From assembly GCA_023144895.1 (NCBI GenBank), contig JAGLEV010000011.1:1-31914 (forward strand): a DNA stretch of 31,914 nucleotides, in the 5' to 3' direction. Under the pieces are notes generated by a model. The model did no database searches. It was not told the origin of the DNA and saw nothing but the letters and a program-made list of their open reading frames with translations. The stretch comes from Thiotrichaceae bacterium (GTDB lineage: Bacteria > Pseudomonadota > Gammaproteobacteria > Thiotrichales > Thiotrichaceae). Of the stretch, positions 2,079 through 31,914 are shown piece after piece; position 1 is the stretch's first letter, and each line of letters opens with the position of its first letter. Position numbers and translations under genes: made by a program.

Positions 2079-2912
2079 ATGAAAAATATTTTAGTAACAG
2101 GCTGTTCCAGTGGTATTGGTTATTGTGTTGCATTGCGTTTGAAGGAGCGGGGCTATAAAGTTTATGCTACTGCACGTAACGAAGATGACTTACAGCGTTT
2201 ACGTGATAAAGGTCTTGTTGCAATGCCGCTAGATTATGCTGATCCAGAGAGTGTAGATGATTTAGCCAATGAGCTAATGTTGCGTACTAATAATGATATC
2301 TATGCTGTTTTTCATAATGGTGCTTATGGTCAGCCAGGTGCGGTTGAGGATTTAAGTCGTGCTGTGATAGAAGAGCAATTTGCCAGCAATGTGTTTGGCT
2401 GGATTCAATTAACCAATCGTTTAATTCCTCTAATGCGTCATGTCAACGCTGGGCGAATTATCTTTAATAGCTCGGTACTGGGTTTGATTAGCTTACCCTA
2501 TCGTGGTGCCTATAATGCGAGTAAATATGCGATTGAGGGCTTTGCTGACACCTTGCGATTGGAGTTGATGAATACAAACATTCGTGTTTCTTTGATTGAG
2601 CCAGGGCCAATAGAAAGTCGCTTTCGTGCAAATGGTTTGATTAAGTTTAAACAGCATATTGATACAGAAGGGAGCTTCCATCACCAACAATATAAGACAC
2701 AGTTAGCACGTTTAGAGGAGGAGGGGGTTGCAGTACCTTTTACCCTGCCTCCAGAAGCTGTTGCTAAGAAAGTAGAACATGCTTTATCTAGCTCAAGACC
2801 TCGTGTACATTATTATGTCACTTTTCCAACCTATTTATTTGCTACTTTAAAGCGAATACTGCCAGCAAGTTGGTTAGATCGTCTTTTATTGAAAGTAGCA
2901 GGTGATAAATGA
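2079..2912 (+). CDS. Short-chain dehydrogenase/reductase (SDR) family oxidoreductase
   Basis: 277 aa. N-terminal Rossmann motif TGCSSGIGYCVA, NSS...YNASKYAIEGF (catalytic S-Y-x3-K), and PGPIESRF. Confidence 0.85.
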   Translation: MKNILVTGCSSGIGYCVALRLKERGYKVYATARNEDDLQRLRDKGLVAMPLDYADPESVDDLANELMLRTNNDIYAVFHNGAYGQPGAVEDLSRAVIEEQFASNVFGWIQLTNRLIPLMRHVNAGRIIFNSSVLGLISLPYRGAYNASKYAIEGFADTLRLELMNTNIRVSLIEPGPIESRFRANGLIKFKQHIDTEGSFHHQQYKTQLARLEEEGVAVPFTLPPEAVAKKVEHALSSSRPRVHYYVTFPTYLFATLKRILPASWLDRLLLKVAGDK

Positions 2913-3346
2913 TTGAGTATTTGTTTTTTAATAAGAAAATCAGTAAGCTTTTTACCCAGATCGTGCAGGAAAAAGGAATTGTTTGGCAGCAAGATCATGA
3001 AGCGGTACAAGATGCTATTATTATAAAAATTCCTGAAGATGAAATCAGTGATGAACTTTGGGATGAGCTTGATAAGCGTTATGATGAGTTAAGTGATCAA
3101 GATCAGCACTTATTGGAACAGGAAGAAGCGCTAGGGGATGACCAGAGTGCAGCAGGTATTTATTTACAATTAGCGAATGGCAAACAAACGATTGCGAAAG
3201 TTGATCCTGCGATTATGAATCGCATTTTAGGTGTATTGAGCATTGAAGAGTTTAATGAGTTTCTAGAAGTGATTGTGAGTAGTGTAGAAAATCCTGATGA
3301 TACAGCGATTTGCCAAAACTCTCTTATTGATTCAACTGAAAAGTAA
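2909..3346 (+). CDS. Hypothetical acidic protein (Asp/Glu-rich)
   Basis: 145 aa. Its start overlaps the SDR stop (ATGA at 2909-2912), suggesting translational coupling. I recognise no family. Confidence 0.4.
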   Translation: MIEYLFFNKKISKLFTQIVQEKGIVWQQDHEAVQDAIIIKIPEDEISDELWDELDKRYDELSDQDQHLLEQEEALGDDQSAAGIYLQLANGKQTIAKVDPAIMNRILGVLSIEEFNEFLEVIVSSVENPDDTAICQNSLIDSTEK

Positions 3347-5977: not shown

Positions 5978-6529
5978 AGGTATCTTTCTTTTAATTTGTG
6001 CCTGAACTCACATTCAGGTTGTTAGTAGTATGCAGTATATAGTACTTTACTTTAAATTATTACTAGCACTTATAGAGCGTATTTTAGTAACGACAGACCC
6101 ATAAAATGGGAGGTCGAATTATAACAATAAACATAAAAGAGTCATTTGCTGACCTGACACAAGGAGGTATCCTGTGTTTTGCTATTATTCGGCATCCTTT
6201 CGGTGCTTTTGTAATGAATCGATTAAATCATACCCCTAGCATGCTTTAATGGAGAATACTAACAATTGCCTAATGTCATGGCAAGCCTGTTCCTTTTATG
6301 TTGGTTCTTATATAAATATAAGCTTGTTATGGAGCATAGTGTCTCACCCTATCTAAGTCTTAATTTTTATGCTGAAAGTTCAACATTCCCTGTTTTTATG
6401 TTGTAATAGGGAGAAATTAAGCGATAAGACATATAAGAGCATAGTAGTGCTTTATAGGATTTGGAATAGGGAATTGATACCAAGTGGAAATAAACTTGGT
6501 TTATTGGAGTGTAAGGCTTGGCATATAGC

Positions 6530-22441: not shown

Positions 22442-23209
22442 CTAGATAATAAACTTTCGAAATAATAGATTCATATTTTCATAATTCGTTGATGGAGCAT
22501 AAAGATTATCAGTATCATTCGATAAGCGTTCTATTTCATCACGAATAAACTGATTAATACTTTTAATTGAGGAGGATGTTTTTGATTCAAAACCTACTTT
22601 TTTGCGCTCAATCAGCGCGGCAATATCCTCTTTTAGCTGTCCTTCAGGAATGAGCTTATTAACCATAACATCGAATTCAAGAGGGACAATGCCAAGGTCT
22701 TTTTCCAGCCATTGCATTGCTAACAAAGGACGCAATACATAAAAGTACTTTTTGATTTGTACTTGCTCACTTTTTAGGTATTGGCGGTTGTTCTTTTTTG
22801 CCATATGAAAATAGTGATAAAAACAGGCTTTCGGTGAATAGTGCTGTTTCATTAAGTCTTTCATCGCATGAGTGAACTCATTATCTTGTCGATAAATAAT
22901 TGATGAGCTGAGCCATTCCATTAGTGCAGGGTTAGATTTTTTCATTAATTTTAATGATTTACGCAAATCCCAGCCATTAATATCAAATACCTCATCAACG
23001 GGTAGTTCAATCACATCACGCTGACTCTCAGCATTGACACTTAAATACCAATCACGTTGATTAGCATAAATAAAGCGTACATCATAATCACTATCTTGAG
23101 ATTCAAAACCCCATGCACGACTACCCGACTCACAGGCATAGAGAATTTTTACTGAGTGATCGATTTCTATTTGATCCAGTTTACTTTGTATTGCTGAGAT
23201 TATATTCAT
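22442..23209 (-). CDS. Small Pol-beta-superfamily nucleotidyltransferase (RtcB-operon-associated type)
   Basis: 255 aa. N-terminal NTase signature 'LYACESGSRAWGFESQDSDYDVRFIY' (GS...D.D). It lies downstream of rtcB and an SPFH gene on the same strand. Confidence 0.55.
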   Translation of the reverse strand: MNIISAIQSKLDQIEIDHSVKILYACESGSRAWGFESQDSDYDVRFIYANQRDWYLSVNAESQRDVIELPVDEVFDINGWDLRKSLKLMKKSNPALMEWLSSSIIYRQDNEFTHAMKDLMKQHYSPKACFYHYFHMAKKNNRQYLKSEQVQIKKYFYVLRPLLAMQWLEKDLGIVPLEFDVMVNKLIPEGQLKEDIAALIERKKVGFESKTSSSIKSINQFIRDEIERLSNDTDNLYAPSTNYENMNLLFRKFII

Positions 23210-23264
23210 CGCTCTTTGCTCATATAAAAGTGAGACTTAAAAAATAAAGTCCCACCTTTTTTTA

Positions 23265-24842
23265 TTATTTTAAACGTACCATGTCATTCATCATGCCATC
23301 AATACCACCATAGACATTTAGCGTATTGACATCACTAATGACACGCTCTAGAACTTCCAGTTCTTTTAGGCGCAATAGTGTTGGATTACCTTCCATCATC
23401 TTGGCTGTATTATGCAGTGAACGAGTGGCTTGTGTCTCTTCTCTACGACGAATCAAGTTAGCTTCAGCAATCTTTTGTGCTTCAACAACTTGCTCCAGAA
23501 TCTCCTTCATTTCACCAGGAAGAATAATATCCTTAACACCCGTGGATTGTAGCTCAATACCAAAATCAGAAACTTTATCTACAACGATATCAAGTACATC
23601 TTTATTGAGAAGATTCTTATCCTCAAGTAATTCATCTAAGCTACGAGTGCTAACAACAGCACGTAATGCGAGCTGAAGTTCACGGTACAAGTAGTCCTCA
23701 TGGTCGGCGAGCTTTCTTTCTACTGTTTCAGCATCTGTAACTTGCCATGTAGCGGATAGGTTAATACGCAGACTGACTCGATCCTTAGTTAAAATTTCCT
23801 GACCATTGACCGCCATATTTTGTAGGCGCATATCAAGGTGTTTAATCGTGATGTTACGATTAAACTTCCACCATGAGTAAGCACCTGCCGTTAGCATTTG
23901 CTCTAACTTGCCATCAATCCATAGAAAACCGACATGATTTTCAGTAATTTCAGTATGACAAACACAATCGCTGACCGAAGAACCTAATAGGGATTCTCGT
24001 GGTAGGCGCAACTGTCGAGCAAGTGTTTTATCAATGGCAAGTTGTGCTGTATCCTCAATATTCAGCTTTCTCACTTCTAATAGACGCTTACTTTTCCAGT
24101 ACATACCTTGCTGCCCTGGTGATAGAATATCGCGCAGTACATTATTTTCATAAACCAGACCTACCTCATTATCCGCCGTTGTCCAGTGCATAACATGGTC
24201 TTCAAATAGTGCCATATGTTGTTCAACTAATTGTAATAGGCGTGAGTTTGTTCCAATGCTTAATGGGTCATCTATTGCAATTTTTTCCAGTGTTAGCGCC
24301 TTCGACTGATCCCAAAAACGATAATGTCCATGGTTCAATACTTGTATCAATTGATCATTGCAAAACAATAGTGCACGTTTATCCATCGCTAAAGTAAAAG
24401 TACGAGTATGTTGCTCTACCTTGTGTAGGGCATGTGTTGTGCGAATTTCTTGATCAACATGACTAGGCAAACAAGGTTGCTCATCCACATTTTGTTTGAT
24501 GACCTTTAGCTTAGAAAGTGCTTTCCATAGGGCAAATTCACTAGATTCTGGAATAATATGAACAAGTTTATCATTTTGATAGATCAGTGCAATTTCACCT
24601 TTTCCAGAGCTAACGACTTGTAAATCATTAGCAAACTGTTCTGGATAAAGCTCCATGAGTTGTTGTAATCTTTTATCAATCACGATACCGACAGATTCCG
24701 TCATATCGTATACTTTTGCTTCAATAGGCGATAGGCCCCAAAAATGATGTTCGCCAGCCCCTAGAATCCTGTGAAACTGCTTTTTCTTAAAGAATAAAGC
24801 ACGTTGAGTGTCAGATAGTATCAATTTTTCAGTGATAAACAT
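23265..24842 (-). CDS. SPFH/band-7 (stomatin/prohibitin-like) domain protein with a repeat-containing N-terminal extension
   Basis: 525 aa. The C-terminal about 130 aa is a clear SPFH core ('GIELQSTGVKDIILPGEMKEILEQVVEAQKIAEANLIRRREETQATRSL...GNPTLLRLKELEVLERV'). The N-terminal about 390 aa holds 4-5 degenerate repeats of a beta-hairpin-like motif (N/D-(D/K)-x-L-x-x-h-L-x-x-G-x-(H/Y)-x-F/W-W). Confidence 0.7.
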   Translation of the reverse strand: MFITEKLILSDTQRALFFKKKQFHRILGAGEHHFWGLSPIEAKVYDMTESVGIVIDKRLQQLMELYPEQFANDLQVVSSGKGEIALIYQNDKLVHIIPESSEFALWKALSKLKVIKQNVDEQPCLPSHVDQEIRTTHALHKVEQHTRTFTLAMDKRALLFCNDQLIQVLNHGHYRFWDQSKALTLEKIAIDDPLSIGTNSRLLQLVEQHMALFEDHVMHWTTADNEVGLVYENNVLRDILSPGQQGMYWKSKRLLEVRKLNIEDTAQLAIDKTLARQLRLPRESLLGSSVSDCVCHTEITENHVGFLWIDGKLEQMLTAGAYSWWKFNRNITIKHLDMRLQNMAVNGQEILTKDRVSLRINLSATWQVTDAETVERKLADHEDYLYRELQLALRAVVSTRSLDELLEDKNLLNKDVLDIVVDKVSDFGIELQSTGVKDIILPGEMKEILEQVVEAQKIAEANLIRRREETQATRSLHNTAKMMEGNPTLLRLKELEVLERVISDVNTLNVYGGIDGMMNDMVRLK

Positions 24843-25357
24843 GATTTTTCTCCTTGGTCATGTTGATAATTGTTAATGAGGCTTCTGCCACATTTTAAAA
24901 TAGGGAGGAATGACCTTCACATTCATCGCTGTCTGTTAGCTTGTACGAATAAGAAATCAGTACTGCCACCTTGCGAGTACACTCTATAACGTGCACTGTT
25001 TAGGCTTATAGAGACTGATCGGTTATTCGCAAACCCACTCACTAAGAGCGGTAAATGCTGACTAATCCAGTAACAAACAATATTGGCAACGGTAAACACT
25101 AAAAGCTTGTTTACGATTGACCCTATTGATTATCGCTAGCATCGTCTGAAAGTCATCCCAAGGTTATGTGATGTTAGTCACGCGTCTTTTAAGGACGTTG
25201 CTCCATTTTTTTTAGAGATCAAGCATTCTCTCCTGGTTGTGTCAGTGAAGACACTTAAATGATCGGGGAAGGATCAGTTATCGTCGAGTGGATTTGCACC
25301 ACCTTCCTATAGATTATTGAATCTATCGCTCTTCTGTCTGAGCCGCTAACGACATGT

Positions 25358-25382
25358 TGCCTCTTGTCGAGGCAGGTTTTTT
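25358..25382 (+). terminator. Rho-independent terminator-like hairpin (plus-strand orientation) inside the noncoding block
   Basis: TGCCTC-ttgtc-GAGGCA followed by GGTTTTTT. There is no annotated plus-strand gene upstream, so it may terminate an unannotated RNA. Confidence 0.4.
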
Positions 25383-25543
25383 ACCTAAAAACACATGATG
25401 AATAGGTACATAGCGAGATAGAATCTCTTATGCCAGACAGGTATATCGAACCTGTTATTGCTTATTACATCAAGGTTATTAGGTAAATTAGGTTGGGGAA
25501 ATAGGCTACCTATTTCCCAAAATTTTATAGTGATATCGCATAT

Positions 25544-26770
25544 TTATCCTTTGACACAAACGACTTGCTTTAGGGTATGTACAATTTCTACCAGATCTTT
25601 TTGTGCTTCCATCACCTTTTCAATCGGCTTGTAAGCAGAAGGTGTTTCATCAATAATACTGCTATCTTTACGACATTCAACGCCTTCGGTGGCTTTAAGA
25701 TGCTCATCTAAACTCACTTCTTTTTTAGCCTGAGTACGTGACATCACACGACCTGCACCATGACTACAGCTACAAAAGCTATTTTCATTACCTAGACCAC
25801 GAACAATAAAGGACTTAGCGCCCATGCTTCCAGGGATAATTCCCATCTCGCCTTTTTGGGCACTAACCGCACCTTTACGTGTTACCCATACATCCGTATC
25901 AAAGTGATTTTCACGACTAATGTAATTATGGTGACAATTCACTGCTTCAACATCAGCGGCAAAAGGAATACCCATTTCATCATTCAGTGCTTGAATCGCA
26001 TTAACCATCATCACTTCACGATTAATACGAGCAAAATCTTGTGCCCAAGCCACTGCCATTGTGTATTCACGAAACATCGTTGACCCTTCAGGAATATAGG
26101 CTAAATCTTTATCAGGTAACTGGATAAAATAACGCTCCATATCTTTTTTAGCCTGATCAATAAAATACGTTCCAATACGGTTACCTACACCACGTGACCC
26201 GCTATGTAGCATAATCCAGACATTATTTGATTCATCGAAACAAACTTCAACAAAGTGATTACCTGTGCCTAATGTTCCAAGATGATTAATGTTATTGGTA
26301 TTTTTTAGTACAGGGTGTTTTTCCTTCATGATTTCAAATTGATCATTTAAAGGGCTCCACGCCTGAGCAACCTGAGTAGAAATTTCTCCCCAGCTTCCTG
26401 AATCACGCTTTCTACGGTTCACCTTACGACCATGTGGAATAGCACGTTCAATACGGCTACGCAAAGAGGTCAAGTTATCGGGGAGTTGATGTGCTTTTAG
26501 GCTAGTTTTCACTGCCATCATTCCACAGCCAATATCCACACCTACCGCAGCAGGGATAATCGCGCCTGTCGTTGGAATCACACTACCAATGGTTGCGCCT
26601 TTACCTAAATGTACATCAGGCATTGCTGCAACCCACTTATGGATAAAAGGCAGCTGAGCAATATTTTTTAACTGTTGTTTTGCGTTATCGTTAAAAGGTA
26701 CGCCTCGTGTCCACGACTTAATAGGAAAGTGACCTTTTTCGTGTAGTACTTCGTAGTGTGTTGAGTGCAT
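25544..26770 (-). CDS. rtcB: RNA-splicing ligase RtcB (3'-phosphate/5'-OH RNA ligase)
   Basis: 408 aa, the same length as E. coli RtcB, and near-identical over the N-terminus ('W.KGVP....A.QQL.N.A.LPFI.K..A.MPDVHLGKG.TIGSVIPT.GAIIPAAVGVDIGCGM'). Catalytic His/Cys clusters are conserved (HSGSRGVGN, CHHNY). Confidence 0.95.
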   Translation of the reverse strand: MHSTHYEVLHEKGHFPIKSWTRGVPFNDNAKQQLKNIAQLPFIHKWVAAMPDVHLGKGATIGSVIPTTGAIIPAAVGVDIGCGMMAVKTSLKAHQLPDNLTSLRSRIERAIPHGRKVNRRKRDSGSWGEISTQVAQAWSPLNDQFEIMKEKHPVLKNTNNINHLGTLGTGNHFVEVCFDESNNVWIMLHSGSRGVGNRIGTYFIDQAKKDMERYFIQLPDKDLAYIPEGSTMFREYTMAVAWAQDFARINREVMMVNAIQALNDEMGIPFAADVEAVNCHHNYISRENHFDTDVWVTRKGAVSAQKGEMGIIPGSMGAKSFIVRGLGNENSFCSCSHGAGRVMSRTQAKKEVSLDEHLKATEGVECRKDSSIIDETPSAYKPIEKVMEAQKDLVEIVHTLKQVVCVKG

Positions 26771-26807
26771 GGCTATTTACCTTTTACAATAATGATGGTT
26801 TAGGTAA

Positions 26808-26823
26808 AGCAATAGCTATGCCA
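26808..26823 (-). promoter_or_regulatory. Candidate sigma54 (-24/-12) promoter for rtcB
   Basis: The minus strand reads TGGCAT-AGCTA-TTGCT. The GG and GC are spaced exactly as in the TGGCACG-N4-TTGCW consensus. The element lies about 40 nt upstream of the rtcB ATG. In E. coli, rtcBA is transcribed from a sigma54 promoter activated by RtcR. Confidence 0.5.
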
Positions 26824-26947
26824 AAAATTATTTTTAATTAAATTTTACCTTTAATGTGTTGTTATTTATTGTGATATTTTTTATTTGTATTTTTTATTAA
26901 ATAAGTGGGATTTTATTGGTGCTGAATATTACTATCTTTTTTGATAT

Positions 26948-26991
26948 CTAATTATCAAAAAAGATAGTAATGCGGATGTTATTTTTGGCGA
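26948..26991. promoter_or_regulatory. Perfect 19-bp inverted repeat with 6-nt spacer (candidate enhancer-binding-protein UAS or strong hairpin)
   Basis: ATTACTATCTTTTTTGATA-tctaat-TATCAAAAAAGATAGTAAT. It is centred about 150 bp upstream of the candidate sigma54 -24 element, the typical position for a bEBP upstream activating site. Confidence 0.4.
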
Positions 26992-27557
26992 CCAAAGATT
27001 TCTTTGTGCATATAGTGACTATATTGGGTGTCAGGTCATTTGCTTAAAAAGTAGTAAAGCTCTGCTATTTTTAGCTTTATATCGCACGGTCTACAGCTTA
27101 TGGGAGTTGTTGGTTTCTTGAATCTTGTTAAGGCTAAATATTATTAGTAATAAAATAATTCAATCATCGATTTTTTTACGACTCATGATCTTATTAAAAC
27201 GTCGTATAATCTTGTAATCATAAAGTATTTTTTTCTTAAAATAGCAAGAAAAATGTAGGTTTAATCAATATTAAATTGCTATTGTGAAAAAAATAATCAG
27301 AAAAAGACTATTTTTATAGCTACTCTTTATTAATGGTAATTAATTATGCGAATCAAGTAGCGGGTATAAAATCAGCAGTTCCTATTTTATAGTATTTATA
27401 AAATAAGTTGATAACTATTTAAGCTTTGATTTTCTGTTGCTAAAATATTGCAACTCTCTTGCTTTATAACTAAAACGGGAACTGCTGGTGTAAAATATTA
27501 TTCAATTAACGTTAATTATCAATCATTATTTTCTATAAATAATTAATTTTAAGGGAC

Positions 27558-28001
27558 TTGGCTATGAATATAAAAAATATTGCAGTATCTGTTTTAATTG
27601 CACCTCTATTGATGATTACTGGAGATGTATCATCAGCATCATCAAAGGATGCTTCTTTAAAAAAATTAGCAGCACTTAGTGTATTCTTTGCCAGTAAAGG
27701 ATTTTCTTGTAGAAACTCAGCGAGTGGGAAATACTTAGCTCAAGGTAATACTTATACAGTTTATACTGATTTGTATAAAGAAAATGCGTATATACTAGTC
27801 GCTGCAGGTAATGAGCACGTAAAAGATATTGATATTATTTTACATGATCAAAACCATAATGTTATTTCAAAGGATGGTAGTACTGATCCCATTCCAATGG
27901 TGACGGTTTCTCCTAAGTGGTCTGGTAGCTTTCATGCTAAGGTGAAGATGTATCGAGGCAGAGGTTATTCAAACTTGATGGTTTGCTGGAAAAAACGTTA
28001 A
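27558..28001 (+). CDS. Hypothetical small exported protein
   Basis: 147 aa. Signal peptide (…IAVSVLIAPLLMITGDVSSASS), RBS AAGGGA, 4 Cys. It sits between rtcB and rtcR in a very AT-rich tract. Confidence 0.45.
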   Translation: MAMNIKNIAVSVLIAPLLMITGDVSSASSKDASLKKLAALSVFFASKGFSCRNSASGKYLAQGNTYTVYTDLYKENAYILVAAGNEHVKDIDIILHDQNHNVISKDGSTDPIPMVTVSPKWSGSFHAKVKMYRGRGYSNLMVCWKKR

Positions 28002-28081
28002 TCTGTTTAGCTTATGTGTTCTTAATCTGTGTGAGATGATTGCTATTGAAATAATATCATTTTATCAGGGCTTTACTCACT

Positions 28082-29689
28082 ATGAAAAATGTCATTATCG
28101 GTGTGCTAGGTACACGATTAGATCACGGTGGTCTAGGAAATCGGCGTTGGAAAAAATGGCGACCCAGCTTATCGATGCTATTACAAAAAGGGATTCCTAT
28201 TGATGAATTTATTCTTATTCATCATGTGGATGATACAAAGTTAGCTGAATTGACCTTTAAAGATATGGCAACCGTTGCCCCCGACACTAAACTAAGCTCT
28301 CATATTGTTGATTTCAAAAATGCATGGGATTTTGAGCAAGTTTATGCACAACTCCATGATTTTACGACACAGCAAAATTTTGATGCAGAAAAGGTAAACT
28401 ACCTTGTTCATATCACTACTGGCTCACATGTGGTGCAGATTTGTTTGTATTTATTGACTGAAGCAAATTATATTCCTGGTAAGTTGTTACAAACCTCGCC
28501 GAACCAAAAGGGAGCGACAGAAATAGAGCGTGTTACGGGTAAATTTCAGATTATCAACCTTGATTTATCACGTTATGATTTAATTGCATCACGTTTTGAA
28601 CAAGAGTCACGACAAGCGATTAGCTATTTAAAAGGGGGTATTGCAACACGTAATAAAGCTTTTAATGATTTGATCGTACAACTAGAGCAGGTTTCTATTC
28701 GTTCAACAGAGCCTATGTTACTCACAGGGCCAACAGGAGTAGGGAAGTCTCGTCTGGCTCGGCTGATTTATGATCTGAAGAAACAACGGGGTGATCTGCG
28801 TGGCAAATTGGTTGAAGTCAATTGTGCAACGCTACGGGGTGACAATGCCATGTCCGCAATGTTTGGGCATGTAAAAGGTGCTTATACAGGTGCAACGACG
28901 GGTCGTACAGGATTATTGCTAGAAGCCGATCAGGGTTTATTATTTCTTGATGAAATTGGTGAGCTGGGTCAGGATGAGCAAGCGATGTTGTTACGTGCAA
29001 TTGAAGATAAAACCTTTCTTCCCTTTGGTTCTGATAAGGAAAGTCATAGTGATTTTCAGTTAATAGCAGGGACAAATCGTAATTTATTTGAGCAAGTGCA
29101 AAAAGGTTTATTTCGTGAGGACTTACTCGCTCGGATTAACCTTTGGACTTACGAAATGCCTTCGTTAAAACAACGTATTGAAGATTTAAAACCAAATATT
29201 GATCATGAATTAGAGTTGTATACTCAAAAAGCAGGCTATAAAGTCCATTTTAATAAAGTGGCAAAGGAGCAGTATCTAGACTTTTCCTATTCTGAGCAGG
29301 CACTATGGCAGGCTAACTTTCGTGACTTAAATTCTAGTATTGTTCGGATGGCAACACTAGCGAGTGGTGGACGTATTACTGAGGCGATTGTGAAAGCAGA
29401 AATTCAACGGTTAATGCGAGATTGGCAAATCTATCAACAGCCTACAGTGCAGGATAAGACGCTCGCTATTGTAGAGTCCTGTCTTGGTGAGGATGGAGCT
29501 AAGGCAATAGATTTATTTGAACAAGTTCAATTAGCTGAAGTGATTCGTATCTGCCGAGAAAGTAAAAGTATGGCAGTCGCTGGGCGTAAATTATTTACTA
29601 TCAGCCGAATCAGTAAGGCGAAGAATAATGATAGTCATCGAGTGAGACAATATTTGCAGAAGTATGGTTTAGAGTTTAAATCTCTTTAA
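28082..29689 (+). CDS. rtcR: Sigma54-dependent transcriptional regulator RtcR (CARF, AAA+, HTH)
   Basis: 535 aa (E. coli RtcR is 532 aa). N-terminal CARF domain matches E. coli RtcR ('G.VGT.LD..G.G..RW.KWRP.L.....D...L.H........L...D.A.V.P.T...S..VD..N.WDFE.VYA.LHDF'). AAA+ Walker A 'GPTGVGKS', the sigma54-contact loop 'GAYTGA' (GAFTGA variant), and Walker B 'LFLDEIGEL'. Confidence 0.9.
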   Translation: MKNVIIGVLGTRLDHGGLGNRRWKKWRPSLSMLLQKGIPIDEFILIHHVDDTKLAELTFKDMATVAPDTKLSSHIVDFKNAWDFEQVYAQLHDFTTQQNFDAEKVNYLVHITTGSHVVQICLYLLTEANYIPGKLLQTSPNQKGATEIERVTGKFQIINLDLSRYDLIASRFEQESRQAISYLKGGIATRNKAFNDLIVQLEQVSIRSTEPMLLTGPTGVGKSRLARLIYDLKKQRGDLRGKLVEVNCATLRGDNAMSAMFGHVKGAYTGATTGRTGLLLEADQGLLFLDEIGELGQDEQAMLLRAIEDKTFLPFGSDKESHSDFQLIAGTNRNLFEQVQKGLFREDLLARINLWTYEMPSLKQRIEDLKPNIDHELELYTQKAGYKVHFNKVAKEQYLDFSYSEQALWQANFRDLNSSIVRMATLASGGRITEAIVKAEIQRLMRDWQIYQQPTVQDKTLAIVESCLGEDGAKAIDLFEQVQLAEVIRICRESKSMAVAGRKLFTISRISKAKNNDSHRVRQYLQKYGLEFKSL

Positions 29690-29803: not shown

Positions 29804-31914
29804 TTATTTCCGTAGCTCTCGCCAACTTCTAATACCTGTTGTTATTGCATCATTAATATAAATAGTCGTATTGATTCCTGTTTGACCATTGATTTTTTGT
29901 GCTGAAATACCCATGCCAAGCAATTTATTTGTTGTTGTGAAATCGAGTAGCTGAAGTGTTTTTGCATCACCTAAACCTACTGAAATCTTAGAGTTAATAG
30001 CGCTATTGTCGCTACTTTTGGTAAAGGTGTTAGTGGGAAAATAACCATTGGTTAATGAGTACAGATAATAATAAGCGGTTCCAGGACAATTAGCTCCAAT
30101 AGATACATGGGTAACAGGAAGAATGATACTGTTAGCTGCAATGGTTGCATTATCACTGATAGTCGAATTTGCTGGCAGTGCTGTAATGCTAGGATCTGCT
30201 GTTAATGTTCCACCACTCCATTTACCCGCACTGTCTCCAACAATCGCACTCCATTGTCGGATCCAGCTTGAATTTGGACTATCATATTTGAAGACAGTGA
30301 GGCGATCTTTTGATTGTGCGCGAAGGTAGTAGGCTCTATTTGTGGATCTTGATGCGCCAATATAGGTCACAGGCGATGTATCTGATGAACCGAGTGCTGC
30401 CACTGCGCCGTTGTTGATCTCTGTTTCTATTGCACTATCTGTTGCTAAAGTATTATCTACCGCTAACAATGGTGCAGAATGAATATTACCATTTGAATCA
30501 CCAAGATAGAGTGTTTTCTTGGCAGGTGCATTATTTCTTGCGTAATCCATCATAATATAAGGACTGGATGTTGCAATGAAATTGAGTGATATTAAATAAG
30601 TCGTACTTGTGTCTGCTAGGCTTCTGATATGAAGCTTAGAACTAGTACCTTCAGTTATTGTATAAACACTATAAACCTTACCGTTTTTATCAGAGAAATA
30701 AGCACGTTGCCCATGGTTGGGCGCAGTATAGACCTTTGTATTGTCAACTTCATGGTCAATATCCCAAACAACCCCATTGAGATCACTCGAGCTGTCTAAT
30801 TTTAGTACATACTGTCCCAGACCTTTTTTATAGCTCCCAATAACATAACTGTTATAAGTTGCTGATGATTTAATATCTAATACATCCGTTGTGCCGTGCA
30901 TAAAATGATGACTGCTAAAGGTATTATAATCTTTTAGTTCTTTTACTAAAGTTCGTGGAATCCACCCCCACCCTAGGTCACCACTTTCCTGATAAATAGA
31001 ATAAATAAAACCATCATTACTGCTGAGTAAGACACGTTTTTTTAGATTGATACGCTTTGAAACAACATCCGTATTATAGCTACGATAAGTACTATCACTA
31101 AGGTATTGCATCACATTCATATCTTGCCCAACCAGTGCCATTGTATTGTGTGAAATAGCCCCTAAAAAAGAGTTTTCCTTACGGTCACCAATATAAGCGG
31201 GATGATCATTTGATGGATCGAGAGTATAGTCTTTAATCGTACTAACATTAGGGGTGTTATTAATGGCAAAAGCACTCGCATCAAGTACCTCAAATTTGAC
31301 TTTGTTACCGCCTTGATTGGTTGAATAGAGTCGATTCGCTCTTTTTGTCTTATCCATTGTGCTTGCGGTATCTACAAAGCCAGTCGTCTTGACGGTAGTC
31401 ATACCATTATTACCGATGACATAAGAATTTAGATGTCCTTCAACAGGTGATAATGTTGTTGTGGCAAGAAATAACTGCTTATTATCTTTTATTTGCAGGC
31501 TACTATTAACTTCTCCTGTTAATGCTGTGCAATTAGAATTATTATCCCGATAATCTAAATCTTTCCCCATAGGAGCAGCACTGGAGCCATCTTCAAGCGT
31601 GTCATTGTCGGTATCGGCTAGTGTAAAAATATTCGTTGCATCGGTATAGCTAAGCCCATTCACATCCGTATAGCTATCATAATTAGCAGGTGTTTCAAGT
31701 ACAGGGCTATTGAATAAACCATTAACACCAAAAGCATTGCTATTATCAATAATGCCATCACTATCAGCATCAACCGTTGCAATCGTCGCTACGGTTAATA
31801 AGCCTGATTCAACAATATCTTTGATATTATCGTTATCAGAGTCAGGATCAAGATAATCGACTTGATCAGCTCCATCGGTATTGACAGGGGTTAAACCTGC
31901 TGTGTAAGCAGTAT
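29804..31914 (-). CDS. pilY1: PilY1/PilC-like type IV pilus-associated adhesin, C-terminal part (5' end outside the window)
   Basis: The reading frame stays open on the minus strand to the window edge. The ORF-track 'start' at 31663 is a GTG codon internal to that frame. Beta-propeller-type motifs 'LLSSNDGFIYSIYQESGDLGWGWIP' and 'LYLGDSNGNIHSAPL' resemble PilY1 hallmark blades. The C-terminus ends ...GIRSWRELRK. The upstream part has Asp-rich DxDxDG-like Ca-binding-type repeats (DSDNDNIKD, DADSDGIIDNSNAF, DTDNDTLEDG). Confidence 0.45.
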   Translation of the reverse strand, partial: TAYTAGLTPVNTDGADQVDYLDPDSDNDNIKDIVESGLLTVATIATVDADSDGIIDNSNAFGVNGLFNSPVLETPANYDSYTDVNGLSYTDATNIFTLADTDNDTLEDGSSAAPMGKDLDYRDNNSNCTALTGEVNSSLQIKDNKQLFLATTTLSPVEGHLNSYVIGNNGMTTVKTTGFVDTASTMDKTKRANRLYSTNQGGNKVKFEVLDASAFAINNTPNVSTIKDYTLDPSNDHPAYIGDRKENSFLGAISHNTMALVGQDMNVMQYLSDSTYRSYNTDVVSKRINLKKRVLLSSNDGFIYSIYQESGDLGWGWIPRTLVKELKDYNTFSSHHFMHGTTDVLDIKSSATYNSYVIGSYKKGLGQYVLKLDSSSDLNGVVWDIDHEVDNTKVYTAPNHGQRAYFSDKNGKVYSVYTITEGTSSKLHIRSLADTSTTYLISLNFIATSSPYIMMDYARNNAPAKKTLYLGDSNGNIHSAPLLAVDNTLATDSAIETEINNGAVAALGSSDTSPVTYIGASRSTNRAYYLRAQSKDRLTVFKYDSPNSSWIRQWSAIVGDSAGKWSGGTLTADPSITALPANSTISDNATIAANSIILPVTHVSIGANCPGTAYYYLYSLTNGYFPTNTFTKSSDNSAINSKISVGLGDAKTLQLLDFTTTNKLLGMGISAQKINGQTGINTTIYINDAITTGIRSWRELRK

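Follow-up and report, generated by a model that had tools for sequence, protein, structure and literature searches.

The pairing of the RNA ligase RtcB with a Band-7 protein and a tRNA-like noncoding RNA ("b7a-tRNA") is attributed to the survey of Burroughs and Aravind (2016, Nucleic Acids Res) in a preprint that cites it (bioRxiv 10.1101/312249). The same preprint relates that the Band-7/b7a-tRNA pair was proposed as an equivalent of Ro60/YrlA and describes the b7a-tRNA as a prediction that has "not been validated experimentally." RlaP is credited to the same survey (PMC6514570) and has later been characterized biochemically, adding one or two NMPs to RNA 3'-OH ends and restoring aminoacylation of repaired tRNA (PMC12776372). 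Related combinations are found in the rsr-yrlBA-rtcBA operon of Salmonella, in which RtcR/sigma-54 control and the RtcB ligase are joined by a noncoding RNA with a tRNA-like module and by a ring- or cage-forming protein partner, and in the rtc locus of P. aeruginosa, an RtcR-associated locus that holds both SPFH and RlaP genes (PMC13086221 and PMC12776372 combined).

Here, we describe a locus in a 31,914-nucleotide stretch of DNA from a Thiotrichaceae bacterium (GenBank assembly GCA_023144895.1, contig JAGLEV010000011.1, positions 1 to 31,914), referred to below as the window. Judging from the papers that cite the 2016 survey, the locus is a member of a widely conserved, already predicted type of RNA-repair cluster, and the proposal of an initial annotation of this DNA that it may be a variant not yet recognized does not hold. 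Like the systems described there, the window has rtcB beside a Band-7 gene with a tRNA-like RNA 5' of it, and RlaP, a recurrent RNA-ligase partner in those systems, is also present; the reading as counter-ribotoxin RNA repair, with the Band-7 protein and its RNA as scaffold or cofactor, is shared. The window differs in that its Band-7 protein carries a duplicated N-terminal module and its tRNA-like RNA is single and degenerate. Relative to the survey as its citing papers present it, the present analysis adds that the tRNA-like genes usually form abutting pairs and are followed by a covarying structured RNA of 240 to 440 nt, here called S2.

The window shares with Salmonella the elements named above; however, the Salmonella operon encodes Ro60/TROVE and RtcA, both missing here, and the protein partner is of the SPFH type instead of TROVE/vWA. 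A YrlA model found nothing in the window and reached 26 to 38 bits in relatives, against a threshold of 69. The P. aeruginosa locus has the RtcR, SPFH (PaFlo8/PA14_60630), RtcB, and RlaP families in common with the window but, unlike it, retains RtcA, with RlaP between rtcB and rtcA.

Gene content of the locus

The locus comprises the following features.

22442-23209, minus strand: rlaP, RNA-ligase-associated Pol-beta nucleotidyltransferase, 55 nt 3' of the Band-7 gene
23265-24842, minus strand: Band-7/SPFH ("slipin family") protein, 525 aa, PF01145 at aa 298-469
24843-25278, minus strand: S2 structured RNA, about 436 nt, from the tRNA-like gene to the Band-7 start codon
24850-24855, minus strand: Shine-Dalgarno sequence AAGGAG ahead of the Band-7 gene
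25149-25159 with 24907-24918, minus strand: S2 long-range helix P3, closing off a variable region and the long, conserved helix P5
25239-25254, minus strand: S2 hairpin P2
25261-25275, minus strand: S2 hairpin P1
25279-25353, minus strand: tRNA-like RNA (b7a-tRNA type), from Rfam tRNA and family model R2
25354-25543, minus strand: spacer S1, from the rtcB stop to the tRNA-like gene
25544-26770, minus strand: rtcB, 3'-phosphate/2',3'-cyclic-phosphate RNA ligase
26808-26823, minus strand: sigma-54 -24/-12 promoter TGGCATAGCTATTGCT, TGGCAT-N5-TTGCT, 37 nt upstream of the rtcB ATG
26928-26971, no strand assigned: perfect 19-nt inverted repeat ATTACTATCTTTTTTGATA / TATCAAAAAAGATAGTAAT, about 105 to 150 nt upstream of the sigma-54 promoter
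27558-28001, plus strand: 147-aa ORF with a signal-peptide-like N terminus, between the promoter region and rtcR
28082-29689, plus strand: rtcR, CARF-type sensor domain, sigma-54 AAA+ activator, and HTH, divergent from rtcB

Pfam upheld the initial identification of RtcR, RtcB, an SPFH protein, and a nucleotidyltransferase, together with the name RlaP. RtcR matched the RtcR (E = 4.9e-70) and Sigma54_activat (E = 1.8e-44) families, exceeded the cut-off of 650 for the NCBIfam equivalog RNA_repair_RtcR with 740 bits, and was matched by the PADLOC model RtcR--CARF_AAA_HTH at 770 bits. RtcB matched PF01139 over its full length (E = 5.3e-132), and RlaP matched PF10127 over positions 3 to 248 of 249 (E = 7.4e-90). 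No RtcA (RTC) or Ro60 (TROVE) Pfam domain was detected in window ORFs of at least 100 aa, in line with the reported lack of rtcA and rsr. The 147-aa ORF had no family match in Pfam, NCBIfam, or PADLOC, and tblastn detected nothing like it in 80 related loci; on this comparison of sequences, it lies outside the conserved system.

Conservation of gene order

In 54 of the 80 related loci, rtcB is located upstream of the Band-7 gene on the same strand, and its product is 70 to 81% identical to that of the window. A noncoding gap of 330 to 1,200 nt separates the two genes in 46 of those 54 loci, and a divergently oriented rtcR is present in 47/80. The conserved order of rtcR, rtcB, gap, and band-7 is not a chance adjacency.

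RlaP is a non-constant partner, its gene adjoining the Band-7 gene in just 3 of 81 loci. The view that the SPFH and nucleotidyltransferase genes are true operon partners was borne out: the pair adjoins rtcB in related loci L036 and L047, where RlaP homologues follow Band-7, and recurs in the P. aeruginosa rtc locus and as a separate island in 1,625 of 5,426 complete E. coli genomes. This yjbD-lysC island, like the window, pairs a Band-7 gene (39% identical) with RlaP, and a zeta toxin gene adjoins it. In the gap of about 530 nt before its Band-7 gene are a hairpin resembling a T arm and the sigma-54-like motif TGGCACGCTTCTCGCA; no full tRNA-like RNA or S2 was detected there by the models built in this analysis or by Rfam. 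Unlike the window, the island adjoins neither rtcB nor rtcR.

Sigma-54 promoter and RtcR control

The promoter motif TGGCATAGCTATTGCT is the sole match in the window (0.16 expected), which taken alone is weak because 16 of 100 shuffles also yield a match. However, 36 related loci have the same motif 5' of rtcB or 5' of the tRNA-like pair, and this shared position supports the sigma-54/RtcR control claimed initially. In loci without an adjacent rtcB, the unit formed by the tRNA-like RNA, S2, and band-7 possesses its own sigma-54 motif about 100 to 130 nt upstream; the RNA and the Band-7 gene are therefore co-regulated and travel together. The perfect inverted repeat lies at a distance from the promoter typical for enhancer-binding-protein sites and is a candidate RtcR binding site.

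The noncoding block between rtcB and band-7

The noncoding block (24843-25543, 701 nt) has a GC content of about 40%, versus 27% in the rtcR-rtcB intergenic region, and is far more stable in folding than its shuffles (z = -7.0). A lost rtcA was rejected as its origin, the contents being a tRNA-like gene and S2. The "candidate regulatory RNA" suggested earlier was thus right as to the presence of an RNA, which is more specifically a tRNA mimic with a large structured domain.

Genes for tRNA-like RNAs are found 240 to 450 nt upstream of the Band-7 gene in 77 of the 80 related loci. Encoded CCA is absent in 96 of 122, and the anticodon loops are highly variable or abnormal, the upstream copy often having "anticodons" of 2 or 4 nt; anticodon aside, the downstream copy is 72% identical between genera. 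The minimum free energy structure of the window copy is a cloverleaf (-19.4 kcal/mol). Its "anticodon" loop has 8 nt, or 4 nt if the stem is taken as 7 bp; the T-loop reads UGCAAAU, the acceptor stem is bulged, and CCA is not encoded. The window copy scored 29.2 bits with Rfam tRNA (E = 8e-4 in a 1-kb scan) and was the sole window match of model R2, which was derived from 50 loci with the window excluded (32.7 bits; E of about 5e-8, a rough estimate). ARAGORN made no tRNA call for it. This degenerate copy (29 to 33 bits) stands alone; 43 relatives have a pair.

S2 matched no Rfam family. Model R1, which was derived from 35 loci with the window excluded, matched the window at 24900-25065 on the minus strand with 39.8 bits (E of about 6e-11, likewise approximate); the second-best window match reached 9.6 bits. 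The conserved core was present in 61 of 81 sources, always immediately 5' of band-7. In an alignment that was itself fitted to the model, 92.5% of cells were paired, compared with 30 to 41% in slid controls, and 26 of 27 pairs showed double changes. Helix P3 was also put through the partner test and is counted as covariation support for S2. Its 5' strand is a conserved, anti-Shine-Dalgarno-like CCUCC, and its 3' strand, GGAGG, lies 20 to 60 nt upstream of the real AAGGAG; many loci have a U-rich tract after P3. Since 50 to 60 nt separate the end of S2 from the downstream ribosome-binding site of Band-7, S2 may in addition set the translation of Band-7.

The Band-7 protein

The Band-7 protein consists of N-terminal beta-rich modules (residues 1-145 and 146-293), an SPFH domain (294-440), and a long C-terminal helix (443-506). 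The first module, of about 145 aa, is duplicated in the following 150 or so (28% identity; E = 1e-13), a feature common only to L001-L004 and a few metagenomic proteins. The predicted fold combines a stomatin-type SPFH domain with the long helix and is partly major-vault-protein-like; its top structural matches were stomatin, HflK, and prohibitin. The eukaryotic vault particle contains major vault protein, vault RNA, and the TROVE protein TEP1. Major vault protein has nine repeat modules versus two here, with a TM-score of about 0.3 and an identity of about 10%, and the model suggests a partial resemblance to the fold of that protein. Membrane-protein models gave no significant match, and no N-terminal hydrophobic hairpin was predicted in the beta-rich, helical model, leaving the membrane scaffold envisaged for the SPFH protein unsupported. 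When PaFlo8 was deleted from the rtc locus of P. aeruginosa, no phenotype appeared in the assays used, which were of a kind other than RNA damage (PMC13086221).

Proposed function and alternatives

Taken together, we favor, with some reservation, the view that the locus is a Band-7/b7a-tRNA-type RNA-repair operon under RtcR/sigma-54 control, comprising rtcB, the tRNA-like RNA, S2, band-7, and rlaP. A ribotoxin or stress nuclease would cleave tRNAs to leave 2',3'-cyclic-phosphate ends, and by analogy with Salmonella RtcR, for which this is established, fragments of the damaged tRNAs would activate RtcR. It counts against this scheme that induction in Salmonella required RtcA, and rtcA is absent here; the PaFlo8 deletion result and the single, degenerate tRNA-like copy of the window also weigh against the overall view. 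RtcR would then oligomerize and fire the promoter at 26808-26823, and the five elements would be made as a single transcript, which we infer because all of them lie on one strand and no other promoter was convincing. RtcB would seal cyclic-phosphate/5'-OH breaks, RtcA being dispensable for ligation because RtcB acts directly on cyclic-phosphate ends, and RlaP would restore one or two nucleotides on trimmed 3'-OH ends, an activity known from Pseudomonas enzymes. The tRNA-like element is probably excised or recognized in the manner of a tRNA. With S2, it may be the RNA partner of a soluble, oligomeric Band-7 protein, and such an RNP could fill the role of Ro60-Y RNA in rsr-yrl-rtcBA operons, either acting as a tRNA decoy or, as a scaffold or cofactor, presenting the ligase with damaged tRNAs.

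S2 might instead work chiefly in cis, as a riboswitch-like or autoregulatory leader for translation or termination of the Band-7 mRNA; the tRNA-like element would then serve mostly for RNase P/Z processing, splitting the rtcB message from that of band-7. The invariable abutment of S2 on the Band-7 start region, the two P3 strands and their distance from AAGGAG, the U-rich tract, and the mere 0 to 5 nt between the tRNA-like 3' end and hairpin P1 are all consistent with this. However, the Shine-Dalgarno sequence lies outside every conserved helix, neither a ligand nor an alternative terminator/antiterminator pairing was found, and S2, with its highly conserved internal-loop core, exceeds most leaders in size. 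We consider a mainly cis-acting S2 rather unlikely, and it would be compatible with the operon and RNP explanation.

Improbable, in our estimate, is a role for the tRNA-like RNAs as sentinels or decoys for invading anticodon nucleases, in which their cyclic-phosphate 5' halves would be the physiological RtcR ligand and Band-7 would store or present them in a feed-forward alarm. In a molecule that is otherwise 72% identical, it is the anticodon triplet that is hypervariable, the loops include stop or unused anticodons, and the putative decoys are encoded within the regulon, including stand-alone sigma-54 units; yet this reading is purely inferential, the variability is equally consistent with a lack of constraint, and neither the frequent 2- or 4-nt "anticodons" of the upstream copy, poor mimics of a target loop, nor the 8-nt loop of the window copy favors it. 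An anti-phage role was also raised initially; that the cluster is an anti-phage or abortive-infection system instead of a repair system, with the nucleotidyltransferase and Band-7 protein as effectors on RNA during infection, appears very improbable. PADLOC does include RtcR-type CARF regulators, the E. coli island is variable (30% of genomes) and adjoins a toxin gene, and the patchy distribution has the appearance of lateral transfer. However, PADLOC gave no meaningful match for Band-7, RlaP, or RtcB, homologues numbered none in a phage collection and one in IMG/VR, and such a role thus has no direct support. The window operon also contains no toxic effector domain, and what is known of RlaP biochemically points to RNA 3'-end repair (PMC12776372), although counter-toxin repair and defense can coexist.

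Spacer S1

Within S1 lie two hairpins, one of 10 bp at 25496-25518 and one resembling a T arm at 25437-25455, as well as a sigma-54-like match of poor quality at 25420-25435. It is weakly similar to the equivalent spacers of L002 (nhmmer E = 4e-4) and L010 (E = 9e-3).

Gene content of the RNA-repair locus

The genes of the locus were assigned from the list of open reading frames (ORFs) in the window and a Pfam scan, as follows.

22442-23209, minus strand: RlaP (PF10127, E 7e-90, 301 bits, positions 3-248 of 249, full length)
23265-24842, minus strand: Band-7/SPFH protein of 525 aa (PF01145 at aa 298-469)
25544-26770, minus strand: RtcB (PF01139, E 5e-132, full length)
27558-28001, plus strand: 147-aa ORF (no family match)
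28082-29689, plus strand: RtcR (Pfam RtcR and Sigma54_activat; NCBIfam equivalog at 740 bits, where the cut-off is 650)

These assignments bore out every gene name in the initial annotation, which had been made from the sequence alone, as well as its view that rtcA and rsr are missing, since no RTC (RtcA) or TROVE (Ro60) domain was found in any window ORF of at least 100 aa. RtcR combines a CARF-like N-terminal domain with sigma-54 AAA+ and helix-turn-helix domains, as in the canonical regulator of the rtcBA operon. RlaP lies in the same operon as rtcB, and both the full-length family match and this linkage to an RNA ligase support its identity. The locus shares RtcR, a predicted sigma-54 promoter and RtcB with the canonical RtcR-regulated rtcBA operon but lacks a co-encoded RtcA. 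The 147-aa ORF, which is encoded on the same strand as rtcR and separates that gene from the promoter region, has a signal-peptide-like N-terminus and has no counterpart in 80 related loci. A 619-aa ORF at 29804-31663, located 3' of rtcR on the opposite strand, had no match in Pfam or NCBIfam, and a type III secretion gene set (secretin N0 domain, YscD-like, YscJ/FliF, YscK and SctL/FliH-like) was observed upstream of the locus at 10227-16284.

In the Band-7 protein, the module in front of the SPFH domain is duplicated at the N-terminus (28% identity, E 1e-13), a feature common to only a few relatives (L001-L004). Its AlphaFold2 model (pLDDT 84) consists of two beta-rich modules (residues 1-145 and 146-293), the SPFH domain (294-440) and a long helix (443-506). 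Judged by this model, the protein looks soluble and stomatin-like in fold, and its resemblance to the major vault protein is suggestive but partial.

Conservation of the arrangement in related genomes

Homologues of the window Band-7 protein number more than 7680, most of them about 387 aa long, and the closest protein match gives a Thiotrichaceae metagenome-assembled genome as the source. Genomic relatives number at least 332. The 80 related loci came from a scan in which each species was represented by one genome; they belong to Thiotrichales, Methylococcales and Cellvibrionales and to some Gallionella and Methylophilaceae. In 54 of the 80, rtcB was located upstream of the Band-7 gene on the same strand, and in 46 of those 54 the gap between the two genes was noncoding and 330-1200 nt long; a divergent rtcR was present in 47 loci. 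RlaP directly followed Band-7 only in the window, L036 and L047, and the rtc locus of P. aeruginosa also holds a Band-7 and RlaP pair (PMC13086221; PMC12776372). Because the gene order is kept in relatives and the Band-7/RlaP pair recurs elsewhere, this neighbourhood survey excludes chance adjacency of the SPFH and nucleotidyltransferase genes with rtcB, the outcome that the initial annotation had named as fatal to its proposal. Carriage of Band-7 by phages or plasmids was also rejected: no homologue was found in phages, copies on non-chromosomal DNA were confined to chromids and large replicons, and IMG/VR held a single contig. Downstream of the Band-7 gene in L009, a cobalamin riboswitch (2771-3139, 59 bits) was seen that appears unrelated to the system.

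A tRNA-like gene downstream of rtcB

The 701 nt that separate rtcB from the Band-7 gene have a GC content of about 40%, compared with 27% in the rtcR-rtcB intergenic region, and their predicted fold is far more stable than that of shuffled sequence (z = -7.0). An Rfam scan of the whole window at gathering thresholds gave no match, and ARAGORN called no tRNA in the window. When a small region was scanned, and only then, a tRNA-like element was detected at 25279-25353 on the minus strand (Rfam tRNA, 29.2 bits, E 8e-4). A tRNA-like covariance model trained on 50 downstream-type copies, with the window left out, had its sole window match at 25278-25356 on the minus strand (32.7 bits, E ~5e-8), the runner-up reaching 9.9 bits. 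Folded alone, the element forms a cloverleaf; it has an 8-nt anticodon loop, the T-loop UGCAAAU and a bulged acceptor stem, and CCA is not encoded. The marks of a genuine decoding tRNA, namely a 7-nt anticodon loop, a canonical T-loop and detection by a tRNA finder, are missing from it.

Relatives carry clear tRNA-like genes at the same position (48-67 bits). ARAGORN found tRNA-like genes upstream of Band-7 in 77 of the 80 loci, with a pair in 43, a single copy in 33 and three copies in one; paired copies abut, with gaps of -2 to +1 nt. Their "anticodons" are very diverse, including att, aaa, aag, tta (a stop) and loops of 2 or 4 nt, and are often impossible for decoding. An encoded CCA was missing from 96 of 122 copies. 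Outside the anticodon, the downstream copy retains 72% identity across genera. [quoted passage not shown] Two relatives carry further elements in this region. In L051, a long, near-perfect hairpin of about 100 nt (6306-6406), with many weak matches to miRNA precursors, occupies part of the stretch from rtcB to the tRNA-like pair; it may be a repeat element or a structure for processing or termination. In L001, the closest long-form relative, whose short contig is without rtcB, ARAGORN predicted three more tRNA genes (Asn-gtt, Glu-ttc and His-gtg; 386-721) some 1 kb 5' of the tRNA-like/Band-7 unit.

A covarying RNA domain, S2, precedes the Band-7 gene

The region from the last tRNA-like gene to the Band-7 ATG (S2, 240-440 nt; 24843-25278 on the minus strand of the window) is conserved among relatives. 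RNAalifold predicted 36 pairs from 26 S2 sequences, with compensatory changes in 29 of them. A model of the S2 3' core (133 positions and 27 pairs, built from 35 loci with the window left out) was run with filters off and had a sole window match, at 24900-25065 on the minus strand (39.8 bits, E ~6e-11; runner-up 9.6 bits). Among 81 sources it recovered 61 copies, many of them from loci outside the training set, all on the Band-7 strand and directly 5' of Band-7. In the model-fitted alignment, which favours structure, 92.5% of core cells were paired, compared with 30-41% with slid partners; double changes were present in 26 of the 27 pairs, and the covariation score was 0.78, compared with 0.07-0.10 in slid controls. 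The elements of S2 in the window are as follows.

25261-25275, minus strand: hairpin P1
25239-25254, minus strand: hairpin P2
25149-25159 with 24907-24918, minus strand: long-range helix P3
24850-24855, minus strand: Shine-Dalgarno sequence

P3, which closes S2, pairs GGAGG and its extensions with a strand that has CCUCC at its end. Column-wise covariation in a MAFFT alignment was uninformative for this helix because CCUCC and GGAGG are nearly invariant, and it was replaced by a duplex test of self against non-self partners. Own partners gave a mean of -18.0 kcal/mol versus -13.2 kcal/mol for non-self partners, and the 3' strand paired best or near-best with its own 5' region (rank 1-4 of 59 in 32 loci), with partner sequences that diverge widely from locus to locus. 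The alignment and the duplex test led to GAAGGTCATTCC as the P3 3' strand, and an earlier assignment, AAATGTGGCAGAAGCC, was rejected. A second degenerate tRNA after the tRNA-like gene was likewise rejected, as those bases form P1 and P2.

Rfam 15 gave no match to S2 at E <= 10 for the window block and L051, or at E <= 1 for seven further loci. An nhmmer comparison of the window block with the other gaps gave almost no match, and HMMs derived from the S2 alignments missed the window; only structure-aware models detect its S2 and tRNA-like gene. Since these two elements account for the block, it is RNA-coding and not a decayed rtcA, and its sole ORF (58 aa, 24923-25099) falls within the covarying S2 core. 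The candidate RNA that the initial annotation had placed here is supported by two models built without the window, and the hidden rtcA that it had allowed for gives way to RNA elements. Identity with YrlA or Y RNA was also rejected: YrlA (RF02553) had no match in the window block, and scores in relatives were no higher than 26-38 bits, where the gathering score is 69; these sub-threshold matches arise because the tRNA-like module is common to both. The window differs from the Ro60 (Rsr)-Y RNA module in having neither a TROVE protein nor a YrlA/Yrn-type Y RNA match. In seven Cellvibrio-group loci (L005, L007, L008, L012, L015, L019 and L033) the tRNA-like pair is present and the S2 model misses the spacer, and the related L026 and L011 gave weak S2-model matches. 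Alignment of the Cellvibrio-group spacers revealed a shorter, divergent form that keeps CCUCC...GGAGG and may be a distinct S2 subtype.

Predicted sigma-54 promoters

A predicted sigma-54 promoter, TGGCATAGCTATTGCT, lies at 26808-26823 on the minus strand, 37 nt 5' of the rtcB ATG. It is the single occurrence of TGGCAY-N5-TTGCW in the window, and the motif also precedes rtcB in many relatives. The rtcR-rtcB intergenic region, which is AT-rich, also contains a perfect inverted repeat (26928-26971; two 19-nt arms separated by 6 nt) about 105-150 nt upstream of the predicted promoter; judged by its position, the repeat is a candidate RtcR enhancer site. A second, internal sigma-54 promoter at 25420-25435 was unconvincing owing to its poor -12 element, and scans for sigma-70 promoters and terminators gave nothing beyond shuffled expectation. 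In loci of the Thiothrix/Thiolinea type that lack an adjacent rtcB, the sigma-54 motif was found ahead of the tRNA-like pair, at a distance of about 100-130 nt. Because of this placement, the tRNA-like genes, S2 and Band-7 look like a sigma-54 unit by themselves, an independent target presumably of RtcR. In four Methylophilaceae-type loci, the stretch from the sigma-54 promoter to the rtcB start codon contains a tRNA-Pro(tgg)-like element, which scored 59-63 bits in the three loci that were scanned with the Rfam tRNA model; a tRNA-like sequence would therefore stand at the start of the rtcB transcript.

Promoter motifs and tRNA-Pro(tgg)-like elements in related loci
Sigma-54 motif upstream of the tRNA-like pair: L024 6471-6486; L049 6475-6490; L062 6559-6574; L064 6514-6529; L072 6486-6501; L075 1541-1556; L057 809-824
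tRNA-Pro(tgg)-like element: L073 2980-3057; L076 5045-5122; L077 161-237; L078 4738-4815

Possible function of the RNA and the Band-7 protein

Rtc operons are widespread, and their accessory parts are poorly understood. In Salmonella, RtcR binds 5' tRNA halves with a 2',3'-cyclic phosphate end and then oligomerises (PMC7790460), and Pseudomonas RlaP adds 1-2 NMP onto an RNA 3'-OH, so that over-trimmed repaired tRNA regains function (PMC12776372). In the window, tRNA damage would activate RtcR, which would drive sigma-54 transcription of rtcB, the tRNA-like gene, S2, band-7 and rlaP; RtcB would then carry out ligation and RlaP would rebuild 3' ends, while Band-7 and the tRNA-like/S2 RNA could form a ribonucleoprotein (RNP) analogous to Ro60-Y RNA. 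A fuller reading, which we put forward tentatively and regard as rather doubtful in its entirety, is that S2 is an undescribed class of large structured bacterial RNA (240-440 nt), joined to one to three tRNA mimics, that a soluble, stomatin/vault-like cage built from Band-7 uses as its dedicated RNA subunit. Such a bacterial vault-like or Ro-like RNP would be induced through RtcR and sigma-54 on tRNA damage; it would occur widely among Gamma- and Betaproteobacteria, and 30% of E. coli genomes would encode a divergent version. Should the RNA-Band-7 particle exist, bacteria would have a second counterpart of the Ro/vault-type RNPs known from eukaryotes, this one linked to the signalling of tRNA damage.

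Rival readings concern both the RNA and the cluster as a whole. S2 could act in cis, as a leader, instead of as an RNP subunit, and the tRNA-like genes could supply decoys or alarm ligands. An anti-phage role of the cluster is weakly supported: PADLOC 2.0 matched RtcR, but it had no match for Band-7 or RlaP, and its 16.6-bit match to RtcB was spurious.

The gene combination in the window is of a known, computationally predicted kind, and since 2016 the Band-7/tRNA-like branch of Rtc operons has existed purely as a computational prediction. The RNA extends beyond the tRNA mimic, usually comprising a head-to-tail pair of mimics and then a large, strongly covarying domain without an Rfam match, and with the Band-7 gene it appears to make up a sigma-54 unit even when rtcB lies elsewhere in the genome. 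The tandem tRNA-like genes, S2, the stand-alone sigma-54 units and the island in E. coli may be new; no priority is claimed over Burroughs & Aravind 2016.

A related island in E. coli

Of 5426 complete E. coli genomes, 1625 (~30%) were found to carry an island with Band-7 and RlaP genes, located between yjbD and lysC. In strain WAT it spans L082 1567-4982 and encodes a 375-aa Band-7 protein, RlaP (323 bits) and a convergent zeta-toxin gene, and L081 carries the same island. With this island in about 30% of E. coli genomes and genes of these families in the rtc locus of P. aeruginosa, genetics is feasible. The 530-nt gap upstream in the island gave no full tRNA-like, S2 or Rfam match; it contains a sigma-54-like sequence, TGGCACGCTTCTCGCA, at L082 ~1782-1797 and a perfect T-arm-like sequence, UGGGUUCGAUUCCCA, at L082 1908-1922.
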